Part shown: positions 12,574-62,337 of the stretch, piece by piece
How positions within the stretch are numbered: the first letter of the stretch is position 1
How the letters are laid out: each line of letters opens with the position of its first letter
IMG/VR virus record: IMGVR_UViG_2728369562_000003
Location: 21,712 to 85,711 of that record
Length of the DNA: 64,000 nucleotides
Strand: one strand, 5' to 3'
Origin: a virus
Taxonomy: Duplodnaviria > Caudoviricetes
The notes under the pieces: model-generated
Databases searched by the model: none
What the model was told of the DNA's origin: nothing
What the model saw: the letters and a program-made list of their open reading frames with translations, nothing else
Made by a program: the position numbers and the translations under genes

Positions 12574-12586
12574 TAATTCACCGCCA

Positions 12587-40019: not shown

Positions 40020-40056
40020 ATAAAATGCATATTTTAAACAGAATGGAGACAATAAA

Positions 40057-40719
40057 ATGAGTACATATCAAGTAGATTTCAATCAATTCAGAGGAAGTAT
40101 GGAAACAACATGCGACCTATATAATTTAGATAACAATACAACGCTTCAAACCAGCCTTTACCGTAATACTAATAGCCTTTGCATTGAATATAAGGTAATT
40201 CAGCGTGATGATAATTCAAATAGTTTTGCGGAGTACGATACACTTGCCCGTGGTTACATTGAAGTACCTTTGACTTACAATCAATTTAAGAAGCCTGTAA
40301 AAAAAGTTTATCTAAATAAAATAATTAACGCACTAGATTCTATTATTAATCAATATCTTATTATAGAAGATACTTCTCAAGAAATTAACGAACGAGTTCA
40401 AATGAAAGTGAGTGCAACTAAAATAAATGAGGAAGATCAATCTGACTTTACGAATGAAACCTCTAATTCACCAATTGATCAAATTAGGATGGAAAGATGG
40501 GACAGGGAATATGACGAGGGAGTTAAATATTTCTTTGATAAATACGGGAATAAACGTATAGGGGATATTATTTATATTGATACACAGCAAGAGCTTGAGC
40601 ATTTAGAACACATAGACTGTGATAATGTGATAAGGATTTTTGTAGACAAAGAGCATGAAAATAAAATTAAAGCTATTGTACTTAAAGATATAAACAAACA
40701 TTATCAAAGAAGTGGATAA
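40057..40719 (+). CDS. Hypothetical protein
   Basis: 220 aa ORF bounded by two ATAAAA-N6-TTTTAW sites. Confidence 0.75.
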   Translation: MSTYQVDFNQFRGSMETTCDLYNLDNNTTLQTSLYRNTNSLCIEYKVIQRDDNSNSFAEYDTLARGYIEVPLTYNQFKKPVKKVYLNKIINALDSIINQYLIIEDTSQEINERVQMKVSATKINEEDQSDFTNETSNSPIDQIRMERWDREYDEGVKYFFDKYGNKRIGDIIYIDTQQELEHLEHIDCDNVIRIFVDKEHENKIKAIVLKDINKHYQRSG

Positions 40720-40750
40720 AACAACAATTTTATACAGATGGGAGGTCTTT

Positions 40751-40945
40751 ATGAGAGGAAAAGCAATTTATCTAACCAGAGAAGAAATGAGACTGATTGA
40801 ATTATGTTTGGATAATGTGGAGCCAAATGATTTAATTGAACCCTACAAGTGGGAAACCGACTTTAAACCTGATCCCGAAGCACATAAAGCATGGCATTCA
40901 GTATCAGATAAGATTTCCAAAGCATTAAGGGAGGGTGCGGAGTAA
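40751..40945 (+). CDS. Hypothetical protein
   Basis: GGGAGG RBS with ATG at 40751 (MRGKAIYL...). Confidence 0.65.
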   Translation: MRGKAIYLTREEMRLIELCLDNVEPNDLIEPYKWETDFKPDPEAHKAWHSVSDKISKALREGAE

Positions 40946-41181
40946 TGCATGTCCCTGACAATATAAAGAAAGCCATTATAAATAGTTCTTATAATTACAA
41001 ACAGGCAATAGAGGATGCGAATAAAATTCGTGATTGGTTGGAATCAAATGAAATAAACAGTGATTTCATGAAAGAATATTTTAGTGAGTGTATAGAAAAT
41101 GGGACAGATAACTGGCGAGACTTTCTGGAACATCTTGAAACTCATGACAAAAATCAAATGTATGATGGTACGGATGATTAA
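40945..41181 (+). CDS. Hypothetical protein
   Basis: 78 aa, coupled to upstream gene. Confidence 0.7.
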   Translation: MHVPDNIKKAIINSSYNYKQAIEDANKIRDWLESNEINSDFMKEYFSECIENGTDNWRDFLEHLETHDKNQMYDGTDD

Positions 41182-41195
41182 GGAGGCGTTAAACA

Positions 41196-41450
41196 ATGGC
41201 TAAATGTAATGACTGTGGTAACGAACGTTTTTTCTACCTAGAGGTATCGGTAACGGCGAAACAGCTTATTGACACAACAGGTGGAGCAAGAAACGGAAAG
41301 ATTTATGATGTAGATTATTCAGATTCGGGGTTAGACAATATTTTCAATGAAGGCAGTTATATTTGTAAGGAATGTGAATCAAGGGACGTTGAACACGAGG
41401 ACGGCGAGGGAGATTACAAACTCTACAATCGAGATCGTGAGGATGATTAG
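41196..41450 (+). CDS. Zn-ribbon protein
   Basis: CNDC...CKEC; AAGGAGG RBS. Confidence 0.75.
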   Translation: MAKCNDCGNERFFYLEVSVTAKQLIDTTGGARNGKIYDVDYSDSGLDNIFNEGSYICKECESRDVEHEDGEGDYKLYNRDREDD

Positions 41451-41714
41451 ATGGGGTTGTTAAAAAATAAAAGCTGGCAAGCACAGGATTTATATAACGA
41501 ATATTTAGAGTTGAAGGTTGATATATCCGAAAAAATAATAAATCTAGAGTTTGTTAAAAGTATGGGGAAAGTAACAGCAGAAGAAGTAACCACAAGAGAG
41601 AATAGCATCAATGAAAAGGTTATGCGGTTAAGAACTGTTCTAAATCAATTAAGAGTAGAACATAATGTACAGCTTGAAGATTTAATTATATTGAGTCTCT
41701 GTGTTGATGTCTGA
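41451..41714 (+). CDS. Hypothetical protein
   Basis: 87 aa ORF. Confidence 0.65.
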   Translation: MGLLKNKSWQAQDLYNEYLELKVDISEKIINLEFVKSMGKVTAEEVTTRENSINEKVMRLRTVLNQLRVEHNVQLEDLIILSLCVDV

Positions 41715-41750
41715 ATAAAACAGCAGTTTTAATGAAAGGGGAAATAAATT

Positions 41751-42074
41751 TTGCTTACATTAAATCAAAACACCTTGAACTTTTTACTGGATAATGGCTT
41801 TGAACTAAAGCAGTATGAGGAGCAGGGATTATCATTTTATACAAAAGAAATAAAGGACAGCCACTCTTTGAAAAAATTAATTACACATCATTATGAATTT
41901 CAGGAAGATGAAGAGATCAACACAAAAGGATCAAGTTTTATCATGGAGATACAGACAAATGGGGAAAACCCTCAATGGCTTTTTACCGGTGAATATGAAA
42001 AGCTTGGTATTCTTCAAGACCAAAATCAGTTTATTGAATTTGTAAAGAAGGTTGAAAAGTTGGTTACATGCTGA
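41751..42074 (+). CDS. Hypothetical protein
   Basis: AAAGGGG RBS with TTG start. Confidence 0.7.
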   Translation: MLTLNQNTLNFLLDNGFELKQYEEQGLSFYTKEIKDSHSLKKLITHHYEFQEDEEINTKGSSFIMEIQTNGENPQWLFTGEYEKLGILQDQNQFIEFVKKVEKLVTC

Positions 42075-42161
42075 CTCCATACACAAAAAGCGACAATGAT
42101 ATATTGATTGAGCTTTGGTCTTAATATGTGATAATTAGATATAATATAAAATCTAGAAAAG

Positions 42162-42593
42162 GTGGATATTATGTCTAAAGAAATTGATATTTTCATCAGA
42201 GTGCTACAAACTGCGCCTGCAAAAACTGGTTTAGCTACCGTGATATTTAGATACAAAGGAATTGTGAAAGAAACATATTTTAGTTGTTTAGAGCGGACAC
42301 AAAACAGATCAATAATCCTTGCTGCTAAAATTGCAATTGCAAGTCTTTCATCCAGTTGCATAGTCAATTTACATACACAAAACAATTTTGGTTTTTCATA
42401 CATAGGAGAAAGAAGGCATAAAAAATGGGTTAACCGTGATGTAGGTGATCAATTATTGTCTACTGTTGAAAAAGGAGGCCACACGCTTAACCTAATTGAT
42501 TGTTCAGCAACTATTGAAGGGAAAAAGTATCAACAGGCATTGTCTCAGAGGCTAAGAAATATACAGAGAAATTCTGGAGAAAGGAGAGATTAA
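42162..42593 (+). CDS. RNase HI-like fold protein, probably catalytically inactive
   Basis: Aligns by eye to RNase HI (RYKG..KE, TQNR, CIVNLHTQ, VNRD) without the acidic triad. Confidence 0.55.
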   Translation: MDIMSKEIDIFIRVLQTAPAKTGLATVIFRYKGIVKETYFSCLERTQNRSIILAAKIAIASLSSSCIVNLHTQNNFGFSYIGERRHKKWVNRDVGDQLLSTVEKGGHTLNLIDCSATIEGKKYQQALSQRLRNIQRNSGERRD

Positions 42594-42596
42594 TTA

Positions 42597-42767
42597 ATGT
42601 CTATGAACGTAAAGCAGCTAATAAATTCATTACAAACCATGCTAGAGAGAGGTCAAATAAAAGAGGATACAACTGTCCTTCTTAATACTTATGACGACTG
42701 TATGTACGAAGTAACATGTATTGAACCATTAGGAGAATTTTTGCAAATTGAAGCTGAGATCAAATAA
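42597..42767 (+). CDS. Hypothetical 56-aa protein (MSMNVKQLINSLQ...)
   Basis: AAGGAG RBS; stop lies within the palindromic site at 42764. Confidence 0.6.
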   Translation: MSMNVKQLINSLQTMLERGQIKEDTTVLLNTYDDCMYEVTCIEPLGEFLQIEAEIK

Positions 42768-42901
42768 AACATGGATTTTATTAAATCTTTGTTCTTTTTA
42801 AGATTCATATAGCGGCACTAAAGAATCATTTATAGGTGAGTATCTTGATCGAGAACTGAATTTCCAATATATTGAATTAAAAGGTATTGGGAGGAGTTTA
42901 T

Positions 42902-43336
42902 TTGAAAAAAATTCTAGTGTTAGCCTTCATATTGCTTTTGGTTTTAACTTATAATGTAGGGAAAGCTTCAGCGGTTATTGTAAAAGATGAGGAAAAAGTA
43001 AGCTTTACTATGACAAAAAATGAAAAGTGGTTTGAGAAATCTGATGATCTTAATCCAAATAATTGGCGTTCTCATTTTGGATACAGATTCACCATATTTG
43101 AGACAGAAGGTTGCACTGTTAACGCTAAGATTATGCGTATGTCTTTATCAGGTTATGAAATAACAGTTAGCGAGAAAAGTTTTTCTGGTGATCATTTCGA
43201 TTTTAGTGCGACTGATCAAGTTGAAACCATGCCTTGGAAGAGACATTATTTAATTTTAACTAAAGATCCAAGCTGTGGAGAAGTCAAAATCAAAGGATTA
43301 TATGGTTTTCAGTTTTATGACCCAGAAGCGTCGTAA
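42902..43336 (+). CDS. Secreted hypothetical protein
   Basis: GGGAGG RBS with TTG start; signal peptide ending ASA. Confidence 0.75.
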   Translation: MKKILVLAFILLLVLTYNVGKASAVIVKDEEKVSFTMTKNEKWFEKSDDLNPNNWRSHFGYRFTIFETEGCTVNAKIMRMSLSGYEITVSEKSFSGDHFDFSATDQVETMPWKRHYLILTKDPSCGEVKIKGLYGFQFYDPEAS

Positions 43337-43539
43337 AAAGAACTAAATTTTTTATGCAATTTATGGCCAAGCTTAGCCTTGGTCATTTTTATAAATTAAA
43401 TGATTGATTACTATAAGTTATCAAAAAAGAGGTGAGGACGATTGATTAAATCAAATTTAAAGCCCATATTAGGAAAGAAAGATCAGCATCAGGCAGCTAT
43501 CCAGAGAAATTGATCATGAGTATCCGACATGTTATTGAT

Positions 43540-44145
43540 GGTGAACACTTGATAAAGAATTAAAAGCCATGTCTCAGGTTTCAATCGATTAGTGAAATAT
43601 AAAAAAGTAAAACAAAACTTAGTAGGATTTATGAGAGCAACAGAGGTAACAGTAAATCAAAAAGATGGTTCATACAATCAGCATATGCACGTACTATTGG
43701 CAGTGGAAAGTACTTATTTTCGAGAGATAATCAAAATTATTATATTTCACAAGAAGAATGGACAAGTCTTTGGAAAAAAGCAATGAAATTAGATTATACT
43801 CCTGTTGTGAACATCAAGGCGATTAAGCTGAAGAACAAGGAAAAATCAGATATTAAATCTGCCATTAATGAAACGGCTAAGTATCCAGTTAAAGATCGGA
43901 TTATCTGACAGATAATCAAGAGCGAAATTTAGAAATAGTGGCTGATTTAGAACATGGTTTTTATCGGAAATGATTACTGTCCTATGGTGGTTTATTAAAG
44001 GAGCTCCATAAGCAAATGAGTTTAGATGATCCATAGGATGGAGATTTAATACATACAGATGAAGATGAGAAAGAACCTGAAGAAACAGCGTATAGTGTAA
44101 TAGCTTATTGGAATTGGGAGAAACAAAATTATTATAATCAATAAC
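43540..44145 (+). pseudogene. Frameshifted pC194/pUB110-family (Rep_1) rolling-circle replication initiator, C-terminal part
   Basis: GFMRATEVT, HUH motif NQHMHVLL, W..AMKLDYTP, ETAKYPVKD, YGGLLKE spread over several frames. Confidence 0.85.
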
Positions 44146-44278
44146 AAGAAGAGTACCTATCATTATTGAATAATTTGTTAAAATTGTAATAAACGTGTAA
44201 ATTTTTGAAGAAAGAAGGATGTGTACTTTCTTTGTAGAATTATGGGAGGGAGATAAAAATATTATTGGAGGTATTGGA

Positions 44279-45130
44279 ATGAAAAAAGGTGTAATCGGAT
44301 TTGTTTTTGTGATGTTGTTTTTTGTTTTATTAGGTAGTACTAGTGTATCTGCTAAGGAGGATGATTCAGTACCATCAGAAAATGAAACAGCTAACGATGT
44401 ACTTGAAAATTCATTAGAAGCATTAGTGAATTATGATATTGAGACATATGTAGAAAATGCAGAAATAAAGTGGAGCGATTCTAAAAGTGAAACTATAAAA
44501 GAGCTACGTTCATTACAAGAATCTCTTCCTCTTGTAAATTATGAAATTTTAGAGGAAGAAAAAATAAGTGATCATCATTATACCTTTCAAGTTCGTACTT
44601 ATTATGGAGAAGATAGAGAAACTGATATTTTTGAAGAACCGTTTCAAGTAATGGATATTGATGGTAAATGGAAAATATTAATGAGTGAGGAAGGTTTGAG
44701 TTTAGATGAATATGAATTAGTTGAAACAAAGCATGAAGAAGTTGAAACAAAGCATGAACTTGAGGAAAATGAAAATGATTTGATTGGTGAAATTCAATTT
44801 GGAGCGTTGTGTAGAAGTTTTAATGGTGAATTTAAATATAACCTTAGTACTTCTTGGTTTTCTGCATGTAAGTCAACAGGATTGATATTAAATATTACTA
44901 GTCAATCTGTTTCTTCAGGTGGAGCGGTAAGATATGATTTACAAGGAAAATATTCTAATGGTAGTATTAAAACTTTAAATACTAAAACTATTAAAGGAAA
45001 CGTGAAAAATACGCTTTATTCTTTAGGTTATTCGGGAAATAAACCTTCGCAACTACGACTACGTTTTACACATGTACAAGGATTTAATGCGAGTTATCCG
45101 GCAACTGTTAAAGGTCAACTTTATTTTTAA
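44279..45130 (+). CDS. Secreted protein with acidic NTF2-like N-domain and basic C-domain
   Basis: GGAGG RBS, signal peptide ending VSA, DGKWKI motif, VETKHE duplication. Confidence 0.8.
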   Translation: MKKGVIGFVFVMLFFVLLGSTSVSAKEDDSVPSENETANDVLENSLEALVNYDIETYVENAEIKWSDSKSETIKELRSLQESLPLVNYEILEEEKISDHHYTFQVRTYYGEDRETDIFEEPFQVMDIDGKWKILMSEEGLSLDEYELVETKHEEVETKHELEENENDLIGEIQFGALCRSFNGEFKYNLSTSWFSACKSTGLILNITSQSVSSGGAVRYDLQGKYSNGSIKTLNTKTIKGNVKNTLYSLGYSGNKPSQLRLRFTHVQGFNASYPATVKGQLYF

Positions 45131-45202
45131 AATGTACAAAACGCATCCATGAAGTGTATATACATTGATATATTAGAAGTATCAAATAAAGAGGTGATAC
45201 TT

Positions 45203-45378
45203 ATGAGTAAACCAAAATCAATGTGCGGTTAGATGATATTCATGTTGCAGTAATGGATGTAGCAGTTGAAAAATTAAAGGAAAATGGTGCGAAAACTAAC
45301 AAAACAGATGTGATTCAAAAAGCACTTCATAATTTTGGTGATGAGGTTTTAAGTAATGATGAAATGAAAGCTATTTGA
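45203..45378 (+). pseudogene. Frameshifted ribbon-helix-helix (CopG-like) regulator
   Basis: GAGGTG RBS; MSKPK / INVRLDD...NKTDVIQKAL in shifted frames. Confidence 0.5.
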
Positions 45379-45438
45379 TATTGACTGGATAGATTAACGA
45401 TATTTCAAAAAGTAGAGCCACACTCAAGGAGTGTGGCT

Positions 45439-45537
45439 CTATTCTGTCATGTTCCGGTTGTGTTTTGCCCAAAGCGTTAAGGTGAATAGGCTGATGGTGA
45501 TGAATACAAGAGAAGTCAATTTAGTAGCTGTGACCAT
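45439..45537 (-). CDS. 32-aa hydrophobic peptide (type I toxin-like)
   Basis: GAGGTG RBS; MVTATKLTSLVFITISLFTLTLWAKHNRNMTE; ends in perfect hairpin 45413-45441. Confidence 0.5.
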   Translation of the reverse strand: MVTATKLTSLVFITISLFTLTLWAKHNRNMTE

Positions 45538-45973
45538 ATTTACACCTCACTTTTGTGTGATCGATAGTATAACCCTTTTTTATTTGGAGAAAAAAAGATT
45601 CCATCCATTTTGGGTGTTAGTCCGTTTATGGTTTATAGGAAGTATTTGCGTATTTGTCAATGTCTTGTAGTGGTAGCGGAACGAAGTGAGCATAAGGAAC
45701 GGAAAGGCGTTGACAAATTGCACTAGCCCCGAACCCTCTTGGTCAGAAGGCTATACAGAGATGAAATGGAGCGGTATCCAAGAGAGCTGTTAGATAAAGT
45801 CTGTACATATCTAAACATCGAGCTGCATGATTTATTGATTTTCCAAAAAAATCATAATCATATCGATCACTCAGGATGAAAATGGTATACTAAAGTTATA
45901 AGGTTAGGAAAGAATTACAAGTTTTCTAGGTCTACATAAAATCGTACTTTTATAGGGAATAGGAGAGGTTATA

Positions 45974-46210
45974 ATGCAAAATACAGTAAAAGTAACTTTC
46001 AATGTAAACGGTGTAGAAATCAAAACAGATGCGGGTGTACCACAAATGCCTAATGGCATTAATGCAGATAATATGATTGTTTTACATGCTAAAAGCAATT
46101 TGAAGAAAAATCTTGGAATTGATATTTATGAGGTTATGAATGCAGAACACTATGATGACATTGAACATCTCGTAACTATTGACAAATCAGGCTATACTCA
46201 AGGTGTTTAA
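45974..46210 (+). CDS. Hypothetical protein
   Basis: 78 aa, flanked exactly by palindromic sites at 45936 and 46211. Confidence 0.75.
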   Translation: MQNTVKVTFNVNGVEIKTDAGVPQMPNGINADNMIVLHAKSNLKKNLGIDIYEVMNAEHYDDIEHLVTIDKSGYTQGV

Positions 46211-46247
46211 ATAAAATCATTCTTTTATTCAGAAATGAGGATTAACG

Positions 46248-47297
46248 TTGTTGAATATATTTTTAGATACACAAGTATATCATTCAAAGAATTTTAACTT
46301 CCAAGATAAAGATTTTTTAAGAATGGAAAAATTTATAGATGATGAAATGATTAAATTATACACCACGCCTATAACTAAAAATGAAATTGAGAATCACATA
46401 AAACAAAAGATTGAAGATTCGAGAGAATATATAAACACCTTTAAGGAAAATGCGAAAATCTTATTAAATTATGACCTGTATAGACCTATTTGGGATCGCA
46501 AAACAATAAAACAAGCAGAAATCAAACTTTTGGAAGATTTTCATAACTTTTTAATAGAAAACAATGTGGAAGAGATACCTATAAGCGGTGATGCAACAAA
46601 ACAAATTTTTCAAAATTATTTTGAAGGTGAGGCACCTTTCAGCTCTAAAAAGAAAGACGAGTTTCCTGACGCATTCGCGCTATACTCTTTACTAAATTGG
46701 GCTGAAAATAATGAAGAAATAATACATGTAGTAAGCGGGGATAATGACTTAAAAAATTTTTGTGAAAGCAAAGAGAATATATTACATATAGAATCATTAG
46801 AAAATGCTCTTGATATTATTAATCAACATGACGAAGTGAGATATCGATTTGCTCAAAGACTTTATGATGATCAGCTAGCCGAATTTGTAGAATATATTAA
46901 CGATTCAATTAGGGATGGAAGTGCAGAATTAAACATAGACGCTTACGATGTTTTAGATGTTGAACTTAAGGAGTTTTTTGTCGAAGGAGAAGACGATCTT
47001 TCTGCAGATCCTTTATTTCTTGATTTAGAAGAAAACAGACTTACAATTGCTCTTAATGTTGTGTTTAATATTCATATAATAACTAGTGTGATTGATCCTA
47101 CTAGGTCACCATACGATTCGGAGGAAGGTAAGTACTTATATGTTGAGTATGAAGAAAATGAGTATATGGATGTGATACGAATACCTGTAGAACTAGAATT
47201 AGACGTTGAGGACTATGAAAATCAATATTATACAATTGAGTCGATCACAATAAATAATGGACAGGTTTATTATTATACCATCCTTGAGGACTGTTAA
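46248..47297 (+). CDS. PIN-domain protein (DUF4935/PIN_12-like)
   Basis: IFLDTQ, E, KKDEFPDAF, VSGDND acidic active-site pattern. Confidence 0.85.
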   Translation: MLNIFLDTQVYHSKNFNFQDKDFLRMEKFIDDEMIKLYTTPITKNEIENHIKQKIEDSREYINTFKENAKILLNYDLYRPIWDRKTIKQAEIKLLEDFHNFLIENNVEEIPISGDATKQIFQNYFEGEAPFSSKKKDEFPDAFALYSLLNWAENNEEIIHVVSGDNDLKNFCESKENILHIESLENALDIINQHDEVRYRFAQRLYDDQLAEFVEYINDSIRDGSAELNIDAYDVLDVELKEFFVEGEDDLSADPLFLDLEENRLTIALNVVFNIHIITSVIDPTRSPYDSEEGKYLYVEYEENEYMDVIRIPVELELDVEDYENQYYTIESITINNGQVYYYTILEDC

Positions 47298-47345
47298 TAA
47301 AACTACGATTTTAAAGGGAAATGTGAAACAAGCGGAGGTGCTGAT

Positions 47346-47741
47346 TTGAGCCTCAATCAAAAAGCGTTAAACAGTTATGTTTATACTCTAGCGTTTTCAA
47401 GTTTGTCATTTGGTCTAATCTTTGGTCTGTATCTGTTTGTTTACTCTGGTTTTATGGCAATAGCATTAGTCACAATTGCCATCATTGCATTTTACGCTTT
47501 AATCACTTACTTGGTGTTTGCCGTCCCTTTGCAAGTGTTGTTAAGAAGAAGGGTCAGAAAGTTTAATTTTCTTAATCTTATTATTTACATCGTAATAGCT
47601 TTTGTAGCTGCGTTATCGTTCTTTGTTGTGACTAATCCAACAAGTGCTCTTGCTGTGCTAAAAAGCTTAAATTATTACATTATGAGCATTGTTGCAGCTT
47701 TCATTTATTGGTTCTGGGATTCTATATTTTTACGGAATTGA
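47346..47741 (+). CDS. yopD: YopD, UPF0715 membrane protein
   Basis: Four TM helices, C-terminal YWFWDS. Confidence 0.8.
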   Translation: MSLNQKALNSYVYTLAFSSLSFGLIFGLYLFVYSGFMAIALVTIAIIAFYALITYLVFAVPLQVLLRRRVRKFNFLNLIIYIVIAFVAALSFFVVTNPTSALAVLKSLNYYIMSIVAAFIYWFWDSIFLRN

Positions 47742-47796
47742 GAGCATAAAGAATCAAGATAAAAGAAGTGTTTTATTCGAAAGGCGGCGAAAGTCT

Positions 47797-48021
47797 ATGA
47801 TAAAGGCTTATACAATCGGACATGAAATCCCCGATAAGGTTAAATCCTGTATTGATGATTGGAACTATTGGACTTGGATTACTGTTGCAAACAATTCAAT
47901 TGCAAACAAAGATGCAAAACGTTTAATTGAATTGATTGAGCCGGAAACAGATAAAATTGCTGTATACAAAGCTGAAAATGATATTAATGTATTTGTGAGT
48001 TATATGATTCCTGTAAGGTAG
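47797..48021 (+). CDS. Hypothetical protein
   Basis: AAGGCGG RBS, MIKAYTIG... Confidence 0.6.
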   Translation: MIKAYTIGHEIPDKVKSCIDDWNYWTWITVANNSIANKDAKRLIELIEPETDKIAVYKAENDINVFVSYMIPVR

Positions 48022-48048
48022 TAGTTCACAAAATAAAAGAGCATTAAT

Positions 48049-48228
48049 CTAAATGCTCTTTTTCATACCGCAACGCCGGCATTCACGTAAGAATATTCCA
48101 CTCTTCACAGAGCTTTTGAACAAAGTGTAATCGCAATTGTCGCAGCGACCGTATTTTACATCAGGATACTCTTTATAATCATAAACGATTGAAGTATCAT
48201 ATCCGTTTGTTTCGTATTTCTCTTCCAC
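48049..48228 (-). CDS. yoyH: YoyH-like Zn-ribbon protein (59 aa)
   Basis: AGGTG RBS with GTG start; CDNC...CRRC. Confidence 0.7.
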   Translation of the reverse strand: MEEKYETNGYDTSIVYDYKEYPDVKYGRCDNCDYTLFKSSVKSGIFLRECRRCGMKKSI

Positions 48229-48298
48229 AAGATCACCTACATAATTTATTCAACATACTCAAGAATACCAAATTTCGTTCGATATAGGGAGGGAACAA

Positions 48299-48550: not shown

Positions 48551-48553
48551 TTT

Positions 48554-48769: not shown

Positions 48770-48779
48770 GAGTGTTCAA

Positions 48780-48927: not shown

Positions 48928-49224
48928 ATTAAAAATTTAGTTTTATTGTCCAGCTTTTTAGGGATTGTGCTATCAATTATAGGGCAATTATTTGGAGTCC
49001 TAACAGATTTCTTTATTCCAGGTATTGCTCGTCTTATGGGGGTTTTAGCTGGACTCCTAGTATTACTTTGCTTGAAGTCAAGAAACACAGAAATGCAGAC
49101 ATTTATTGTGAGCTCAAGTACTGCATTAGGAATAATAGGTGCAGGAATTTTATATCTTCCAGCAGCTATTGTCAATGTCTTAATTGGCTTCAAACTAAAC
49201 AAAAAGATGAGAGAGGAACACTAA
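48928..49224 (+). CDS. Small multi-TM membrane protein, probable ATT start
   Basis: AGGGGTG 7 nt upstream of in-frame ATT at 48928. Confidence 0.65.
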   Translation: MKNLVLLSSFLGIVLSIIGQLFGVLTDFFIPGIARLMGVLAGLLVLLCLKSRNTEMQTFIVSSSTALGIIGAGILYLPAAIVNVLIGFKLNKKMREEH

Positions 49225-53498: not shown

Positions 53499-53511
53499 TA
53501 ATTTTAAGGAA

Positions 53512-53548: not shown

Positions 53549-53560
53549 GGGGGAATTAGA

Positions 53561-53716: not shown

Positions 53717-53866
53717 ACAGAATGAAACTAAATAAAATGGACATTTTAAACACATCGAGCACATGTGTTTATTTGTCTAGAATAAAAATAAAATTAATTA
53801 TTGCATAATCTGTTGGCAACGGATATAATGAAGATACATAAGATAACGTTGTTGGGAGATGGGACT

Positions 53867-54073: not shown

Positions 54074-54089
54074 GGAGAATAAAAATAAA

Positions 54090-54335
54090 ATGACTAACAA
54101 TAAATATTATACTGAGGAAAATAAAAAGAAAGTCTGGAAAAAGCATATGATTGTTTTGAAATTCTTAGAGCAACCAGGAATATCAGAAGCATATCTTAAT
54201 TACTTGCAGGAAGAAATTCATAATGATGAATGGATAGGGTTTGAAAATGAGTTTTTTGAGGAACTGACTGGTAAACCTGTGATAAATGTAGGGGACAAGA
54301 TTAAGGCGACAAAACAATACTCAGCTGTTCATTGA
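54090..54335 (+). CDS. sroB: SroB, phi3T_93-like MazE-binding protein
   Basis: MTNNKYYTEENKKKVWKKH..., recalled similarity and position. Confidence 0.75.
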   Translation: MTNNKYYTEENKKKVWKKHMIVLKFLEQPGISEAYLNYLQEEIHNDEWIGFENEFFEELTGKPVINVGDKIKATKQYSAVH

Positions 54336-54529
54336 GCAAGTATATACTTAAAGTAGGTGTTTTATTGAATTTATCTATTTTGATTAAGTTGCTAGACGGT
54401 TATGACTTAATGAAGCAAATAGAAATCTGCAATGCAAATATTATGCTGCTAAGAAGCTTTAAGCAAGATACTGATTGGTTAAAATTGTGGTATGAGTTAG
54501 ATAATTATTTAATGGATAAAATTAAATGA
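54332..54529 (+). CDS. sroC: SroC-position protein
   Basis: Coupled ORF between sroB and sroD. Confidence 0.55.
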   Translation: MSKYILKVGVLLNLSILIKLLDGYDLMKQIEICNANIMLLRSFKQDTDWLKLWYELDNYLMDKIK

Positions 54530-54530
54530 G

Positions 54531-55601
54531 GTGGAAACCTTGGAAGTGAAAAAGCAAACACCATCTGTTAGGGATTACTCCATTTTTAATGACATAAATA
54601 GATGGTTTGATGAATTAGATTTGAGAAATAGGGATGACAAATCAGCATTTATTGAAAAGTCTAATACTAGAACCACCTATGAAAGGCATATTAGAGAATT
54701 CTTTAATTATCAAGTTGGTAAGGATATTGAATATTTAACTGAAGAAGATGTAATAATTAAAAAGAATGATTTAATGGATTATAGGACTTATTTGGCTAAA
54801 AATAAAAATAATACAAATGCTACGATTAATAATAAAATCGCAGCACTGAAAAGTTTAATTAAATCCTTGGAGTCAGAACACGACTGTGAATCAAGCGTTT
54901 TTAATTTTAGACCATTGCCGACAGAGAAGAATCCAGCTGGTTCATTTGAGGGGATTCCTGAAGCTGAAGAGTTTGCAGAAGCTGCATTTATCCATGAGAG
55001 ACAGAACAGGTTAATGAAAAAGCTCTTTATTTTATTTAGTGTACGCACAGGAGCAAGAAAATCAGAAGTCTTACGAGTAAAATGGGAAGACATAACGTAT
55101 TCATCGAAGCACGATTGTTACTTAGTCAATTTCAAGAAGACTAAACAGAAGAAAGCGAGACCAGTAGGTATTTCTAGCTCCTTTTATGAGGAGTTGTTAA
55201 CACTCAAGAATGAGTATGGTGAGCATGAGCTGATCTTTCATAAATTAACTGTAGACTCAATTAATGATATGTGGCACAGAGTTTGCAGAGTGTTAAATAT
55301 TCCACAGGAAAGAAATCTTAGGCCACACAGTTTACGTAATACAGCCACTAATTTTTCTTATAATGTAAGCGGAGACATTAAAAAGGTGGCAGCATTTTCA
55401 GGACATAAAAACATCAATGTGCTAAATGATCATTATCTAAATAAGGAAAGAGATTATTCTCAAGATCCTGGTGTTATAATTGATCAAGATATAGATATTG
55501 ATTTCCTGGATACTGTTACATTAGACCAGTTTAGACAGTTCTTTTTAGATTGTGATGTTTCCACTCTAAAAAAGCTCAAAAAATTTTTAGAATTAAAATA
55601 A
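54531..55601 (+). CDS. yopP: SroD/YopP tyrosine recombinase family protein
   Basis: TGARKSE, PHSLR, SGH...HY: catalytic R-H-R-H-Y residues appear present. Confidence 0.85.
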   Translation: METLEVKKQTPSVRDYSIFNDINRWFDELDLRNRDDKSAFIEKSNTRTTYERHIREFFNYQVGKDIEYLTEEDVIIKKNDLMDYRTYLAKNKNNTNATINNKIAALKSLIKSLESEHDCESSVFNFRPLPTEKNPAGSFEGIPEAEEFAEAAFIHERQNRLMKKLFILFSVRTGARKSEVLRVKWEDITYSSKHDCYLVNFKKTKQKKARPVGISSSFYEELLTLKNEYGEHELIFHKLTVDSINDMWHRVCRVLNIPQERNLRPHSLRNTATNFSYNVSGDIKKVAAFSGHKNINVLNDHYLNKERDYSQDPGVIIDQDIDIDFLDTVTLDQFRQFFLDCDVSTLKKLKKFLELK

Positions 55602-55685
55602 AAGTGATATAAATAATCATATAAATGCTTTACTTGTATGTTAATGTAATGATAAATTTAATATGATTATGTGTGAGGTGATACT

Positions 55686-57032
55686 GTGGTTCAGGATCTG
55701 TTGACAACAGATAAGCTTTTAAAGCTTAAAAATAAAATAGAAGAAGTTGCATCTGATATTAAACATGATTCCAGAAAAGTAAAGGAATTAAAAGCAATCA
55801 TGGGAGCGCAGTATAAAACGCTGCCTGGTTATGTACAAGAAATTTTGAATAACAATGATAATAACATTCAACGCTTGAATGAAAAGGAAGTTTATATTTT
55901 CTCTAAAGAACTACACAAACTTACTGGCGTAGCCGCTTTAGACCCTTTGAGTTATTTTCCACCAAGGTTGGCTAAGGAGTTAGAGGGCGGAAGAATTTTT
56001 GCCGGTGAAGAGGTTCTAACACTTCCTTATACATTTAAAAACGTAATAAAAATAAATGAAGATAATTATGTGACTTCAATTACTGCGAAAGAATTAAGTG
56101 AACTATATAATAGCTCAATACTACAATACAACTATAATACTCAACGGGAAGGCAGATTCATTAAGGGAAGCTTAATACCTGTGCCAAAGACTAATCCTAA
56201 ATCAGTTGAAGAGATTAAAGAACTTTTTAAAAAGGGCGACTTAATCGTGTCTATGTTTACATTTAATGCACGGTTTGGCACATCAGATGAGGATGAAGAA
56301 ATTGAGTACAATCCAAGCGACCTAAGCTTAACTGTTACTAAGGGTACATTAGTTGATGTTCTAGATGGTTACCATAGAATATCTGGAGTTGTTAAAGCTA
56401 TTACTGAAGCTCCTGAATTAGATCAAACCTTTATTTTGAATATCTTAAATTATACTGAAGAAAAAGCAAAACGTCATTTTGCCCAAATGAATACAATAAA
56501 TCCTGTTGAGAAATCAAGGATTGAAGAACTTGGTCAAAAACGCTATTCTTCCACTATTGTTGAGCAACTTAAATATAATAGTGAACTCAAAGACAAAATT
56601 AGTGTACAAAGTGAAATTGGTATGAGTAGTCCATTCTTGGTTACTTATTATACACTTTCTGAAGCAATTGACGATGCTTTTGAGATCAATTCACGGAGAG
56701 ACGCTATTCAATTGTCCAAGTATTTAAGGGACTTCTTTGCTGAGCTTTTTTATGCTTTTCCAGATGATTTCCTTGAAGATGATCTTAGCGAGTCAAGAAA
56801 CAGATCGTACATTAACTATAATGCTGTATTTTATGGATACATTTATTTGGCCAAAAAAATGCAAGAGAATGGCACACCACTAGCTAAACTAGCAACGATA
56901 CTACAGCAGGTTGATTTTGATAAAGGTAAGACATTCAAGGAGTTAAGCAGCAGAAATTATGAAGAACAATTAAATGCTGCTATGAAGAAAAAACTGAAAA
57001 AAGTTTTCTATGATGAAATTGATGTTCGTTAG
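55686..57032 (+). CDS. yopQ: SroE/YopQ, ParB/DndB-like protein
   Basis: YNYNTQR, LDGYHR, FAQMN motifs. Confidence 0.85.
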   Translation: MVQDLLTTDKLLKLKNKIEEVASDIKHDSRKVKELKAIMGAQYKTLPGYVQEILNNNDNNIQRLNEKEVYIFSKELHKLTGVAALDPLSYFPPRLAKELEGGRIFAGEEVLTLPYTFKNVIKINEDNYVTSITAKELSELYNSSILQYNYNTQREGRFIKGSLIPVPKTNPKSVEEIKELFKKGDLIVSMFTFNARFGTSDEDEEIEYNPSDLSLTVTKGTLVDVLDGYHRISGVVKAITEAPELDQTFILNILNYTEEKAKRHFAQMNTINPVEKSRIEELGQKRYSSTIVEQLKYNSELKDKISVQSEIGMSSPFLVTYYTLSEAIDDAFEINSRRDAIQLSKYLRDFFAELFYAFPDDFLEDDLSESRNRSYINYNAVFYGYIYLAKKMQENGTPLAKLATILQQVDFDKGKTFKELSSRNYEEQLNAAMKKKLKKVFYDEIDVR

Positions 57033-58022
<990 letters not shown>

Positions 58023-58441
58023 ATCCCTATTCAGGGATTAATCTTACATAATAAAAAGAATAAAAATAAAATATTAAACTTCAGTGTGAGCTAAATCGTG
58101 GCATTTATAAATTAGATGGTAGGATTTTGTTTATATTTTTCAGAATTCGACAAAAGTAGACAAGGACATGCAAGAGGTTATATGGTAAAATAATACTACG
58201 CATAAATTGTATTTTATAATGGTCGTCAGGGACAAAATACCCATTTTCTTTTCTTGACTTTTTGATTTTGTACATAAAGGTAATCGTATGAACAATTAAG
58301 GGAAGGTACTTTATTTAATTTATACACTCAAAATTACTAATATAAAAAAGAATTGCAGATAAATAGGCAAAACGTTATAATGAGTTTAATTAAAAAAGGG
58401 AACGTGTGTTTGGATAATTATCACCAGAGAGAGGGAAACTA

Positions 58442-58741
58442 ATGAAGGAGTTCTTTATTCAAGGGGATTTATGTATTTCTTATAATGGACGAATTAAAGC
58501 AGAAAATGAAGAACAGGCTATAATTTTGACTATTGCTGCTTTAACAAAAAAATTGAAAAATAAAAGTGGAAAGTTTGGTTTTCTTGAGAATGGAAAGACA
58601 AAATATAATCATTTATTTGATGTTGATATAAACTCAACTGAAGATGCTGAAATTAGTGCTTCTTATGTCGAAGAGATTGATGAAATGTTTGACGACACAC
58701 TTGAAGAGTACAGAAACTCAGAACTGTTAACAACGAAGTAA
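58442..58741 (+). CDS. Hypothetical protein
   Basis: 99 aa ORF with RBS. Confidence 0.65.
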
Positions 58742-58815
58742 GAATAGTACATCTCGTCAGTCATCATGAGAAATAAAAAAATTGATGACCTTATAGTCAG
58801 ACTGGAGTTTTTTCA

Positions 58816-59055
58816 ATGAAACTGGATACCGTAATGGACATGAGAGAAAGTCTAGCAGCAATTATCTTTAGCGTTGGATCAGAGAACATATTAAGTGGAG
58901 AATATTACATAGAAATTGATTTTCAGAACAAAGACAATAAGTTAACGCTGAAGATTGACAGGGCTGCTTTGTTGGATCTTAGAGACAAGATAAATGAAAC
59001 TCTGTGGAAAATAGATGATGCAAAATCATTAGTTAAAAGTGGCTTTACTCTGTAA
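58816..59055 (+). CDS. Hypothetical protein
   Basis: 79 aa ORF with GGAG RBS. Confidence 0.65.
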   Translation: MKLDTVMDMRESLAAIIFSVGSENILSGEYYIEIDFQNKDNKLTLKIDRAALLDLRDKINETLWKIDDAKSLVKSGFTL

Positions 59056-59080
59056 GTAAAGCTTGTTTTTTAAAAATATA

Positions 59081-59131
59081 AAGAATAAAAATAAAATTAC
59101 TGTTTACAACTCGAATCTGTAATTGTATAAT
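59081..59131 (+). promoter_or_regulatory. SPbeta repeated element plus early sigma-A promoter
   Basis: AAGAATAAAAATAAAAT, TTTACA-17-TATAAT. Confidence 0.75.
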
Positions 59132-59172
59132 TCAAAATATAAGACAGGCATTGAAAGGAGTTGAGGCTGTTA

Positions 59173-59414
59173 GTTGTTTAATGAGCCACAAAATAAAGAA
59201 ATAAAAACCTGGTCATGATGAAATTTCTCAAGGGGTCTTCTCTTCATGTAACAAAGCTCTTCAAAACTTAAATGAGGACGAAATTAGGATGGCCATTGGT
59301 GATTTAGACTTTGTTAAAGACAACCTGGAAGAGATTCAGTTTATATTAAGAGATATTGTTTTTACATACGATGAGGAAAAGAGTAGTCTTATTAAAAGTC
59401 AAAATAAAATGTAA
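59173..59414 (+). pseudogene. Frameshifted small phage gene
   Basis: MFNEPQNKEIK then KPGHDEISQG...NKM* in shifted frame at an A-run near 59203. Confidence 0.4.
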
Positions 59415-59662
59415 GATTTATCGTGATTTAGATTAGGGTGATATATGTTGAAAGAAATCAATATGATTGAACATTATTATTGATGTGATGAAACAATAAT
59501 TACAAAGCGTGATTATACAAGGCACGTGAGGTGATGGTTCTGGTTTTATTCTAAGCAATTACAGTCAGGGGTGTGAAAGCATTTAAAATAACTCTAGTGA
59601 TCTTTCAGCTGGCAAAAGAATTTTTTAAAAAAAGAAAGGGGCCAGTAGGAGCCCCATATACT

Positions 59663-59920
59663 CTAAATTTTTTGGTAAACTCCATAGTACATCTTACCTT
59701 TTTTATAAGTTCCTATAAGTTTCCATGTAGCGCCGTTTAAACGAATAAACGCAGTGAATTTGTTGGAGTGTTGTACTATTGTCTTTAATTCCTGGATTGT
59801 GGTTGAATCAGTATTTTTTTCTTGGACTGAGTTTGAAGGGGTCATAGCAAAAGCAGGAGAGGCAGAAACAAGTAAAGCAAGGGACAATGCAGAACCAGTT
59901 AAGACTTTTTTCAAATTCAC
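59663..59920 (-). CDS. LCI-family antimicrobial peptide precursor (YoqM-like)
   Basis: KKVLTGSALSLALLVSASPAFA signal as in LCI; mature part ...NGATWKL...YYGVY. Confidence 0.75.
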   Translation of the reverse strand: MNLKKVLTGSALSLALLVSASPAFAMTPSNSVQEKNTDSTTIQELKTIVQHSNKFTAFIRLNGATWKLIGTYKKGKMYYGVYQKI

Positions 59921-60069
59921 CTTAAACACTCCCTCTGTTTTTTATATACACCTCTATTATCGCACGGTATACAAAAAAATTCCAAGGGTAATTTTGTTAA
60001 TTTTAACGAACATGGTTGAAATATTGAAATTCGCCCAGTTGCCTGTTGTTCGAAATGTGGCTGCAACAT

Positions 60070-60444
60070 ACAGAGTTTGGGACGGCGGCAGATGTATTAT
60101 GTGGATGTAGTATGGTTAAGCCTTGAAATCATAGGTGATGAGTGGATTTTATGGCGTAATAATAAGTATGGATATGGCTTCAAAAGGATTGCATTACAGG
60201 AAGTTACGAAGAAGGAACAGTTCTCATGAGGAGCAAAAGGTTTAAGGATAAGAACGTCAAAGATATCGATTATAAAGATATTGATATGACGACCAAAGAA
60301 TCGATAATCATTATTTACAAAGATGGTAATTACGAAATTAAATTCCCTAGTGAAATAGGTTATATGGTTACTTGTATATATTGGAAGGGAGCGACACTCA
60401 AGGAAGTTTTTAAGAAAAACCTGAGTTCTGACGGCACGGAGTGA
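60070..60444 (+). pseudogene. Decayed YopX-family gene
   Basis: YRVWDG and FKDKNVKDIDYKDI (cf. LKDKNGKEIYEGDI) in different frames. Confidence 0.5.
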
Positions 60445-60501
60445 TTTGAGATTACAGTTTAAATAAAAGATGCATTTTAACGGAAAAAGGAGGAACAGAA
60501 C

Positions 60502-60780
60502 ATGGTTAATTTAATTAAAATTGAAAAATTAGAGGAAATGGTTAAGTATGAAGATCCAAAAACATCAGATGTACACCATGAAAGGAAACGCTGGACTACA
60601 GGAGTACCAATCATTTTAGTTGATAAAGACGGTCAAATGACTACAACAGATCAATGGGTATACATAAACAAACATGGTGAACTAGTTTATAAAAAGAAAG
60701 AGAACCTATGGTGTCAAGGATGGGACTGGTACGACAAGGGCAAATCACATATTAAAGAAGTTTTTGTCGTCACTAATTAA
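60502..60780 (+). CDS. Hypothetical protein
   Basis: AAGGAGG RBS; flanked by palindromic sites. Confidence 0.75.
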   Translation: MVNLIKIEKLEEMVKYEDPKTSDVHHERKRWTTGVPIILVDKDGQMTTTDQWVYINKHGELVYKKKENLWCQGWDWYDKGKSHIKEVFVVTN

Positions 60781-60828
60781 GCAGCTTTGGATAAAAGTAA
60801 AATTTTAAAGAGAAGAGGAGGATTAAAA

Positions 60829-61077
60829 ATGAACTTGCTAAAAGAAATAACAGTATTTGATTTAACTAAAATCAAACCTAGCACAAAGGTTAAAGTAACT
60901 TGGTACAAGGGATCAGAGATGGAGTACATACATCATGGCGAAGTCATCATCAATAATGGGGAAAAGTTCTTCTATAATTACGTTGATAAAGAAGGAAATG
61001 TAGGTCACTGTCATGTGAACGCACTTGATTTAAAAAACTATCCAGACAGTTTAATAGTTGAAATTAAATCAAAATAA
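60829..61077 (+). CDS. Hypothetical protein
   Basis: GAGGAGG RBS, MNLLKEITV...; flanked by palindromic sites. Confidence 0.75.
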   Translation: MNLLKEITVFDLTKIKPSTKVKVTWYKGSEMEYIHHGEVIINNGEKFFYNYVDKEGNVGHCHVNALDLKNYPDSLIVEIKSK

Positions 61078-61113
61078 AAATTGAAGTTTTAAAGAAAAAG
61101 GAGCTGTTTTAAA

Positions 61114-61350
61114 GTGCAAGATATCCGTGTGATATATGACAGAAACAAAACTTTGGAAGCGGTCGTTGTCCAGTTTGGAGATTATATGTGTGAGCTAACA
61201 GATTCACAAGTAATTAATGAAGAAAATAAAGAATTTGATGTACTTAATGATGAATATCAAGGAGCTTGGAAATATGAAAATGGACAACACTGCGAAGTCG
61301 AAATTTACGATGGTGTAGACAAGTGGGTCTGTCAAGCATTCTTACACTGA
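61114..61350 (+). CDS. Hypothetical protein
   Basis: AAGGAG RBS; flanked by palindromic sites. Confidence 0.7.
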   Translation: MQDIRVIYDRNKTLEAVVVQFGDYMCELTDSQVINEENKEFDVLNDEYQGAWKYENGQHCEVEIYDGVDKWVCQAFLH

Positions 61351-61386
61351 ATAAAAAGACTGTTTTAAAGAGAAAGGAGCTGAACC

Positions 61387-62061
61387 ATGGCAATTGATTT
61401 TTCAAAGTTAAATGATCCAGAAAGGAAAAAGCAGTGGGTTGATGAAAGAAAAGAACGGGAGCGGCTTTTAGAAGAACAAGAAACACTGAGAAAGAAGACA
61501 GTTTGCTTTACCGGCCACAGACCAAATAAATTGGGTGGCTATGATATGAAAAATCCCACAATGCTCAAACTCAAAGATAAGCTACTTGAAGTGATTGAGG
61601 AGTTAATCATAAAAGAAGAGAAGTCCAGGTTTATAACTGGTGGAGCATTAGGAACTGACCAGGCTGCTTGCTGGTGTGTACATATTCTAAAGAAGAAACA
61701 CCCTCATATCAAAAACATAATTGCCACACCTTTCAAAGAACAAGATAAAGTTTGGTCTGCAGACCAAAAAATGTGGTACAAACGTATGCTTAATGTGGCA
61801 GATGAGATTGTTAATGTTGAAGAATTAGATAAATATAAAGTTAGTGGAGAGAAACCAGGAGAGTTTTCGCCAGCTAAGATGCAAAAGCGAAATGAATACA
61901 TGATTGATCACAGTGAGGCCATAGTAGCTGTTTATGATGGAAGTAAAAGTGGTACAAGAAACTGCTTAAATTACGCCAAGAAAACTTACTTAGGACATCA
62001 ACTATGGAGACTTCATCCTGATTTTAATTTTGAATTAGATATTACGTATTTTGTTGGATGA
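61387..62061 (+). CDS. yoqJ: YoqJ-like YspA/SLOG (DUF1273) nucleotide-binding protein
   Basis: FTGHRP, GGALGTD, RNEYMID, SGT motifs. Confidence 0.8.
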   Translation: MAIDFSKLNDPERKKQWVDERKERERLLEEQETLRKKTVCFTGHRPNKLGGYDMKNPTMLKLKDKLLEVIEELIIKEEKSRFITGGALGTDQAACWCVHILKKKHPHIKNIIATPFKEQDKVWSADQKMWYKRMLNVADEIVNVEELDKYKVSGEKPGEFSPAKMQKRNEYMIDHSEAIVAVYDGSKSGTRNCLNYAKKTYLGHQLWRLHPDFNFELDITYFVG

Positions 62062-62080
62062 TAAGGAGAGGTGAACTTTT

Positions 62081-62263
62081 CTGAAACTAATAGAAGAAAG
62101 AATATATGAAGAACGATTGTACATATATTCTGATGATATTGAAGCCAGAAAGCATTTCGTAAGTGAATTAAAATCAAAAGGGTGGATGGTGGACAATTGC
62201 TGGGTTGGGATTGATCTAAATCAAATAAAACAGTTTTATCGATTCAAGAGGGAATTAAAATAA
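62081..62263 (+). CDS. 60-aa hypothetical protein, probable CTG start
   Basis: GAGGTG RBS before CTG AAA CTA ATA GAA; open to TAA within palindromic site. Confidence 0.5.
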   Translation: MKLIEERIYEERLYIYSDDIEARKHFVSELKSKGWMVDNCWVGIDLNQIKQFYRFKRELK

Positions 62264-62337
62264 AAGGATTACTTTAACCAGATAGGGCTGGGCAAACTAT
62301 GAATTTAAAAAGGGAGCTAGAAGCCCCCATTGCGATC

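Follow-up and report, generated by a model that had tools for sequence, protein, structure and literature searches.

What does a short palindrome do when it recurs at one gene boundary after another in a phage genome? The question is raised by a stretch of 64,000 nucleotides (hereafter the window), bases 21712-85711 of an 85.7-kb virus record (IMGVR_UViG_2728369562_000003) from an SPbeta-like Bacillus phage, in which the dyad ATAAAANNNNNNTTTTAW (ATAAAA-N6-TTTTAW) punctuates the gene order. An initial annotation had likened these sites to an integron-type array from which accessory cassettes might be inserted, excised and shuffled. Our comparison of the window with related and distant phages reveals a 28-bp element of fixed architecture, which is conserved across phages of several host genera, keeps to fixed addresses in SPbeta-like genomes and contains within its core some of the junctions at which neighbouring modules change. 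We tentatively propose that the element is the binding site of a conserved phage protein and that it would also act as an anchor for module exchange through short homology, a reading drawn from sequence comparison that we favour with some reserve.

Occurrence and architecture of the palindrome

Across the window, 17 distinct places match the motif ATAAAANNNNNNTTTTAW, with 24 strand-matches in total; 100 dinucleotide-preserving shuffles average 0.44 such matches and never exceed 5. The first estimate had been fewer than one site. All 15 exact copies listed initially are found at the coordinates and with the spacers given there, and the earlier description also holds for the N7 copy (61074) and for both near-matches (59404, 62260); two further exact copies, at 21034 and 48929, are minus-strand matches only. 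The spacing is strict. TAAAA-Nn-TTTTA occurs 20 times with n = 6 in the 85.7-kb contig and 0-3 times with any other n from 0 to 12; the corresponding figures are 34 and 0-4 in SPBc2 and 30 and 1-4 in phi3T, and a control with the motif letters reversed yields 0-2 hits per SPbeta-like genome. Eight SPbeta-like phages contain 20-40 cores per genome (other spacings 0-5), about 35 sites being usual for such a genome, and the palindrome is the most over-represented dyad in all eight.

The arms are longer than first recognized. An extended consensus built from 84 sites oriented by gene direction reads T-Y-T-R-R-A-TAAAA / TTTTA-W-W-Y-A-R-A and is symmetric at positions +-4 to +-6, so that the full element is a 28-bp dyad of two inverted 11-bp arms (TYTRRATAAAA) flanking a 6-bp spacer, strictly N6. 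The spacer has no fixed sequence; its position 1 avoids A and its position 6 avoids T, a base bias at the spacer ends that defines the ends of the arms sharply. No description of the palindrome was found in the literature searched, which did not include the SPbeta genome paper of Lazarevic et al. (1999); that paper may mention it. In the GenBank record of SPbeta, only two of the 34 cores are annotated, both as generic stem-loops.

Placement relative to genes

Gene positions were counted in the plus-strand gene region (window 36-64 kb), which has 13 sites. At eight of these the stop codon of an open reading frame (ORF) of at least 40 codons lies inside the left arm or the core, and at ten a start codon with a Shine-Dalgarno-like word follows 18-32 nt past the core, nine of them at 18-22 nt. 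In annotated SPBc2, 30 of the 34 cores fall in gene-boundary zones, which make up about 15% of the genome. The gene-boundary location and the recombinase-like geometry reported at the outset are upheld. Sites are concentrated in the early and accessory gene regions, and several adjoin annotated terminators or lie upstream of promoters, not within operons. With the start codon only 18-22 nt past the core, a -35/-10 pair would not fit between the site and the gene that follows. The sites fill short non-coding gaps between genes, overlapping the upstream stop codon and abutting the next ribosome-binding site (RBS), and are also found between terminators and promoters.

The distance from core to RBS is near-fixed in every phage group that carries the motif, and in the SPbeta-like phages the asymmetric TTTTAA is mostly co-oriented with transcription; both would suit a role at the RNA level in polycistronic early mRNAs, for instance as a processing hairpin or a translation signal. 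Dyad symmetry, however, is meaningless for single-stranded RNA, the other phage groups use the fully symmetric TTTTAT, and some sites lie between terminators and promoters. Mirrored outer-arm pairing equals the expectation for independent arms (194 unique 28-mers, p = 0.48-0.89), and, folded as RNA, the 13 sites of the window have a minimum free energy (MFE) of -0.79 kcal/mol, compared with -0.78 for shuffles. This lack of covariation, together with an MFE at shuffle level, rules out an RNA hairpin or intrinsic terminator, including the RNA-processing hairpin that the initial annotation had offered as an alternative, and we consider an RNA-level role of any kind very improbable.

Fixed addresses and exchange of flanking modules

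The eight SPbeta-like genomes together contain 263 cores with 67 distinct spacers, 50 of which are common to at least two genomes. The order of the shared spacers is perfectly collinear in seven of seven genome comparisons; each address in this series is fixed and has a spacer of its own, passed on by descent. The sequences beside a given spacer are much less constant. With a flank scored as alike when the adjacent 40 bp are at least 70% identical, the 567 same-spacer pairs between genomes divide into 138 with both 40-bp flanks alike, 203 with one and 226 with neither. Among the 42 sites present in at least three genomes, more than one left-flank type is found at 34 and more than one right-flank type at 31, and three-gamete reassortment across the core is seen at 12. 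The island of identity at such sites is the 16-bp core (TAAAA-N6-TTTTA), which has a sharp left edge and a decay across about 10-15 bp to the right, the outer arms travelling with the flanks. At the GATGCA site (window 60463), SPbetaL8 combines an SPBc2-type left flank with a Goe12-type right flank, and the crossover therefore took place inside the core.

A motif-blind search for orphan islands, defined as 16-mers conserved in at least five genomes with both flanks unrelated in most pairs, returned 28 islands, 13 of which are palindromic sites. With SPBc2 as the reference, 79 of 532 homology ends fall within 10 bp of a core, where 4.7 would be expected at random. A breakpoint is present at 28 of the 30 site-bearing SPBc2 gene boundaries versus 58 of 153 site-less ones (Fisher p = 8e-9), and in short co-directional early gaps at 13 of 13 with a site versus 26 of 74 without. 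The check suggested by the initial annotation, whether breakpoints between relatives coincide with the sites, is thus answered in the affirmative, and allelic replacement at fixed addresses is supported. We propose that the 16-bp core would be the crossover point when related phages trade allelic modules, because it is the only sequence common to otherwise unrelated neighbouring modules.

Two side observations concern the cores themselves. Between phi3T and SPBc2, blocks of perfect identity (1.4 kb, 4.9 kb and 18 kb) start or end exactly at cores. At two addresses, one at contig position 3383 (upstream of the window) and one at phi3T 89340, the spacer is reverse-complemented in other genomes (TTCCCA/TGGGAA and TGATAA/TTATCA), the first address having a like right flank in the same orientation; the palindrome centre can therefore flip. 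Spacer flipping is a known behaviour of long perfect inverted repeats.

Mobility of cassettes and mode of exchange

Do whole cassettes move, as in an integron? Nowhere was a cassette found to occupy a second address, and a flank is joined to a different spacer only in two or three neighbour-site indels and at one flipped site. Those two or three indels span from a site to the next site with heterologous spacers, as in the loss of the yoqY unit in SPbetaL1, and some junctions lie exactly at the arm/spacer boundary. Clean insertions beside a site, recognized where its left and right flanks align to separate places in another genome, have exactly one end at an exact core in 33 of 33 combinations (about ten events), and the other junction is a duplicated microhomology of the RBS region or a lone left half-site. 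We further counted 904 chained indel and replacement events over genome pairs, which are not independent of one another. Among the 155 indels, 29 have a single edge at a core and not one has both, which leaves 126 with neither edge there; among the 749 replacements, 622 are without an edge at a core in both genomes and 8 have both edges at sites in both genomes, roughly one sixth of replacement edges lying at sites.

From the integron-like system first envisaged, the non-random occurrence, the boundary sites and the crossovers in the core thus stand, whereas insertion, excision and shuffling do not, given the collinear order in seven of seven comparisons and the one-ended insertions in 33 of 33; the picture of mobile cassettes is not supported. 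The palindromes share with integron attC sites their position at boundaries beside stop codons and the promoter-less ORF units between them. An attC site moves with its cassette, however, whereas the palindromes stay put and the genes between them are replaced, and no attI/intI-type platform is present here. An attC site also acts as a folded single strand, while the arms of the palindrome carry no pairing signal.

Closer in geometry are the core sites of Xer- and Cre-type recombinases, in which a 6-8-bp spacer lies between inverted, recombinase-binding arms of about 11 bp, and for which cassette exchange between heterospecific lox sites has been engineered. The palindrome resembles them in its inverted 11-bp arms, its strict N6 and a spacer that differs from site to site, and Xer-like recombinase genes occur in every motif-bearing phage group. 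It may accordingly be asked whether the sites belong to a dedicated conservative site-specific system, in which the tyrosine recombinases YopP/SroD and/or YomM would cut at the arm/spacer boundaries and, each address having a 6-bp spacer of its own, recombine only same-address sites of co-resident related phages. Such a system would fit the 11-6-11 geometry, the crossovers inside the 16-bp core, the unique and strictly collinear spacers with no intragenomic rearrangement, and the sharply defined arm ends suggested by the spacer bias, with some junctions exactly at the arm/spacer boundary. It would also give a role to two recombinase paralogues with an intact nucleophile in phages of which SPbeta integrates by the serine recombinase SprA instead. 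Where homology is continuous, identity gives way to divergence at 66 points, 4 of which fall within 10 bp of a core, against 0.6 expected.

The other 62 of these exchange points, however, lie away from sites. Replacements with both edges at sites in both genomes number only 8 of 749, compared with 622 that have none, and the second junction of the insertions is a microhomology or half-site in all 33 combinations, which conservative recombination would not leave. Spacers drift at a neutral rate: when sites are paired by flank homology, 118 of 1158 spacer positions differ versus 137.8 expected from the flanks, so that spacers change at about the rate of their flanks and no selection on them was found. 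In three phi3Ts x SPbeta laboratory hybrids, the crossovers lie in identical blocks of 1.4-18 kb or in site-less intervals of 29-87 bp, and YopP alleles diverge without any change in the site. Compared with Xer/Cre core sites, moreover, the palindromes number about 35 per genome instead of one or two and have recent-indel junctions that are not conservative-looking. Many sites are also decayed in one genome or another. We therefore consider a dedicated conservative system unlikely, and think that most exchanges come from recombination through short homology at a functionally conserved site and not from frequent site-specific events of the conservative kind.

Doubtful for us is also the broader proposition that about 35 heterospecific sites per genome, with uniform arms and an address-specific 6-bp spacer, might be served by orphan Xer-like recombinases (YopP/SroD and/or YomM) in SPbeta-like phages and a wider supergroup of large Bacillales siphoviruses. 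If it were true, co-resident related phages or prophages could swap allelic modules precisely at gene boundaries while their own DNA is neither deleted nor inverted; recombinase-mediated cassette exchange would then have a counterpart in nature, and phage mosaicism a programmed engine. Sites that are recombinase substrates would represent a new viral way to organize gene exchange and would supply many orthogonal recombination sites.

Conserved intergenic crossover points flanking variable genes are known from the PeSL (promoter-early stem-loop) cassettes of T4-type phages and from the linker or boundary sequences of lambdoid phages. The palindrome is like them in being a short conserved intergenic element where homology between related phages starts or stops. 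It differs from PeSL in being a 28-bp N6 dyad without a promoter or stable stem-loop, and its copies are address-specific and collinear, and so are not interchangeable mobile units. Whether the module boundaries of phages consist of special linker sequences or result from selection after random recombination has been debated for a long time. In this context, a single 28-bp, easily mutated element marks a large share of the module boundaries in SPbeta and phi3T, tractable phages of B. subtilis.

Distribution among phages and in the host

The total sample comprised 16 genomes. When every 5-mer dyad at spacings N0-N12 was ranked without bias, TAAAA-N6-TTTTA came first in SPBc2, the contig of the window, Geobacillus virus E3, Mammaliicoccus phage phi36, Tsamsa and PJN02. 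The N6 counts, with those of the backwards control in parentheses, are 31 (2) in PJN02, 30 (7) in E3, 28 (1) in phi36 and 23 (3) in Tsamsa. The element is thus shared with distant relatives whose hosts are Geobacillus, Mammaliicoccus and the B. cereus group; PJN02 and SPBc2 have only 21 of the 182 SPBc2 proteins in common, mostly at 22-45% identity. In Lactococcus phage 949 the motif is at background (7 versus 3 in the control; other spacings 1-4), and two other B. subtilis phages have 0 and 1 sites. The top dyad of 949, ATTAT-N3-ATAAT, is not an analogue of the palindrome but the extended -10 of ordinary promoters. PJN02 has a further dyad, CGTTG-N1-CAACG, which occurs 11 times against a mean of 0 at other spacings.

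A recruited host (Bacillales) DNA-binding protein might explain why the inner ATAAAA-N6-TTTTAT is kept among phages whose shared proteins are only 22-45% identical, and why the motif-bearing phages all infect Bacillales while the Lactococcus phage is without it. The outer arms, however, follow the phage group instead of the host: B. subtilis is host to SPbeta-like phages as well as to PJN02, and PJN02 combines the same inner ATAAAA/TTTTAT with outer arms AATGGA...TCCATT in place of the SPbeta TYTRRA. Of the 31 symmetric sites in a Bacillus genome of 4.5 Mb, 20 belong to an SPbeta-like prophage and three more have SPbeta-type spacers; outside prophage DNA the same chromosome has about 8 symmetric sites in 4.4 Mb versus 5 in the backwards control. 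Other B. subtilis phages, as noted, have 0-1 sites. ComK and CodY, host proteins that bind A/T-rich dyads, differ in spacing or tract order. A host binder is therefore distinctly unlikely in our view. Because the half-sites are independent, the outer arms are group-specific and the host chromosome is not enriched, the data point instead to a phage-encoded dimeric DNA-binding protein as the predicted binder.

We propose that this conserved protein would bind the site as double-stranded DNA, as a dimer or as two paralogues, each of the two inverted 11-bp half-sites (T-Y-T-R-R-A-TAAAA) being recognized independently around the free 6-bp spacer.

Candidate binding proteins

Which protein might this be? 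Two tyrosine recombinase paralogues are encoded in the window. The first (54531..55601, plus strand) is a YopP/SroD-like Xer-type protein of 356 aa that is 100% identical to phi3T_95 and has all the catalytic residues (R, K, H-x-x-R, H and Y); the second (11566..12606, minus strand) is a YomM-like paralogue of 346 aa with R, K, H-x-x-K, H and Y. R, K, H, H and Y are invariant in seven of seven aligned YopP-like and YomM-like proteins, the second Arg position being R or K. Both genes were found in five of five distant genomes tested, whereas YopQ, YonO and YonN were not. The tyrosine-recombinase-fold proteins common to SPbeta, E3, phi36, Tsamsa and PJN02 are YomM-like, YopP/SroD-like and YopR/MrpR-like, and the only DNA-binding-type proteins detected in every motif-bearing group are the Xer-like recombinases and the YopR-like repressor. 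For this reason the Xer-like paralogues are the first suspects, and the binder is probably one or both of the YomM-like and YopP/SroD-like proteins. The available text of one report notes an XerC-type integrase domain in YopP and assigns it no function (PMC8612738); the literature searched contained nothing relevant on the function of the YomM-like gene.

In four of the five distant relatives inspected (a Staphylococcus SPbeta-like phage, phi36, Tsamsa and 949, the last from a virulent group), the YomM-like gene immediately precedes the tape-measure gene; in E3, the fifth, small hypothetical genes follow it in the stretch read. A palindromic site is located within 0-1.2 kb of the gene in SPbeta, the window, E3, phi36, Tsamsa and PJN02, which is a hint only, the thresholds having been set post hoc. 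As a side observation, large siphoviruses of Bacillus, Geobacillus, Staphylococcus, Mammaliicoccus and Lactococcus have the gene among their tail genes, and tblastn also finds YomM-like homologues in Enterococcus phages.

The allele types of these proteins differ along the window. Its YopP/Q/R homologues are 30-38% identical to those of SPbeta, as are those of phi3T, which assigns the sro operon to the phi3T type; YomM (64% to SPBc2), YonN (100% to SPBc2) and the integrase belong to other allele types than the sro operon. Compared with the rest, 54531-58022 is a clear case of module reassortment.

Several points weigh against our proposal of a recombinase-bound exchange anchor. The YopP alleles of SPbeta and of the phi3T/window type are only 33% identical, yet the palindrome consensus is unchanged, and YopP is weakened as the binder because its alleles and the SroF operator diverge while the palindrome stays. 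SPbeta YopP and the YomM-like proteins of SPbeta-like phages have Lys at the second catalytic Arg position. Phage 949 has both recombinase paralogues and no enrichment of the motif. From the near-fixed spacing to the RBS one could suspect a part in gene expression, though this spacing may equally reflect mere crowding in short intergenic gaps. Finally, a small helix-turn-helix (HTH) regulator is a possible binder: none shared across the groups was detected, but small HTH proteins easily escape tblastn.

The last of these points leads to the alternative that the sites form an operator or roadblock array for a non-recombinase regulator, a small HTH dimer or a lysogeny-linked silencer, which would damp early and accessory genes of the prophage, with recombination being incidental. 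The 5-6-5 inner geometry is typical of HTH dimers, the sites cluster in early and accessory regions just before RBSs, and the motif is present in five temperate-type groups with a YopR-like repressor and not in virulent 949, which is without one; this lifestyle correlation, however, hangs on one negative genome. SroE has been described as a second repressor with a mode of action reported as unknown in the available part of that work (bioRxiv 10.1101/2025.11.27.690993). A homologue of YopQ/SroE (ParB/DndB-like) was nonetheless not detected in motif-bearing PJN02 and Tsamsa, which makes this protein itself unlikely as the binder. Also unfavourable are the failure to detect a shared small regulator across groups, a search in which short proteins are easily missed, and the binding profile of the repressor MrpR, for which chromatin affinity precipitation sequencing (ChAP-seq) gave ten prominent peaks, all at SPBRE promoters, in the accessible text of the study (PMC10516654). 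We regard the operator array as improbable in this specific form, while the operator for a dimeric phage protein suggested in the initial annotation remains fully alive. If the sites were operators, they would constitute a missing layer of SPbeta gene control.

SPBRE, YonO promoter and related elements

SPBRE resembles the palindrome in being a repeated intergenic element of the same phages that is bound by a recombinase-fold protein, MrpR, which is reported to bind it as a monomer (accessible parts of PMC10516654 and bioRxiv 10.1101/2025.11.27.690993). From the ten promoter regions named as peaks in the portion of PMC10516654 available, we derived a shared 15-mer. It is AAAAAATATGTATAT-like and non-palindromic, marks about ten promoters and varies with the sro allele: phages with an SPbeta-type sro operon have 13-15 SPBRE boxes, whereas phi3T has 4 and the contig of the window 1, both with a phi3T-type operon. 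The palindrome is missing from five of the ten MrpR peak regions, and its consensus is identical in the SPbeta-type and phi3T-type sro groups. The different sequence and the independence from the sro allele rule out that the palindrome is SPBRE, the MrpR/SroF operator. The window encodes an MrpR/SroF-like master repressor (57051..58022, plus strand) that binds a motif other than the palindrome.

A different repeat of the window, AGAAT-AAAAATAAAATW, is present in 8 copies versus 0.49 expected (22 copies in phi3T), at 35041 and 35320 on the minus strand and at 39223, 52028, 53784, 55728, 58062 and 59087 on the plus strand. The copies at 39223, 52028, 53784 and 59087 lie a few bases upstream of -35/-10-like hexamers, including those of aimR and the sro operon; judged by position, this repeat probably corresponds, in phages of the phi3T type, to the SPBRE/SroF operator.

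A YonO promoter was also considered. The available text of PMC5467207 reports a single YonO start site for the late operon, upstream of yonK. No YonO homologue was found in PJN02, E3, phi36 or Tsamsa, all of which have the motif. The single reported start and the YonO-less, motif-bearing phages rule out that the palindrome is the YonO promoter.

Individual sites of the window

The first site (11527..11544, plus strand, spacer GAGGGA) lies 21 bp past the stop codon of the YomM-like recombinase gene, and its spacer is found in seven of eight genomes. The ACTGTC site (15261..15278) separates two late minus-strand genes, homologues of yomT and yomS, with a minus-strand start codon 20 nt on, and both of its flanks are kept in 28 of 28 genome pairs. 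At 21034..21051, a minus-strand match occupies the junction of yonC and yonB homologues, with GGAG inside the spacer and ATG 1 nt later; the TTAAAG site (28030..28047) marks the junction of yonH and yonI homologues.

The site with spacer TGCATA (40020..40037) occurs in eight of eight genomes with seven left-flank and seven right-flank types, and is part of a 33-bp island that is 100% identical to phi3T. It is followed by the CAACAA site (40716..40733), which has a TAA stop in the core and a start codon 18 nt on; the CAGCAG site (41715..41732), which has a TGA stop in the left arm and at which homology to the unrelated phage PJN02 ends; and the CATGGA site (42764..42781), with a stop in the core and no start codon close by. 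A run of three site-ORF units is opened by the TCGTAC site (45936..45953, start codon 21 nt on) and continued by the TCATTC site (46211..46228) ahead of an ORF with a PIN_12 domain (46248-47297) and the CTACGA site (47297..47314) ahead of a UPF0715 ORF (47346-47741); both ORFs look like accessory or defence-type cargo. At the GAAGTG site (47759..47776), the left flank is kept and the right flank replaced in comparison with SPBc2. The surrounding region (window 40000-48000) is extremely mosaic, the best phage record covering 12% of it at megablast level. The weak copy at 48929..48946, with TTAAAA as its left half, has no adjoining stop or start codon and keeps both flanks in SPR; it may be an incidental match.

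The TGGACA site (53732..53749) precedes the promoter-like region ahead of the sro (yopM-R-like) operon and hence has no RBS next to it. Further on, the near-match at 59404..59421 has one right-arm mismatch and the spacer TGTAAG, which is that of an intact site in five other genomes. The GATGCA site (60463..60480) is present in eight of eight genomes with six left-flank and six right-flank types, and the GTAAAA site (60791..60808) has a start codon 21 nt on. The N7 variant (61074..61092) is the positional homologue of an SPBc2 N6 site with spacer TTGAAG, and is a decaying site because it carries a 1-bp insertion relative to that homologue. The AGACTG site (61351..61368) stands ahead of a YpsA/SLOG-family ORF (61387-62061), and the last near-match (62260..62277) again has one right-arm mismatch.

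In SPBc2, the annotated start of yorM (110881) lies upstream of both an SPBRE box (110908) and a palindrome (111028). A good RBS comes after the palindrome, and yorM itself probably starts downstream of 111045.

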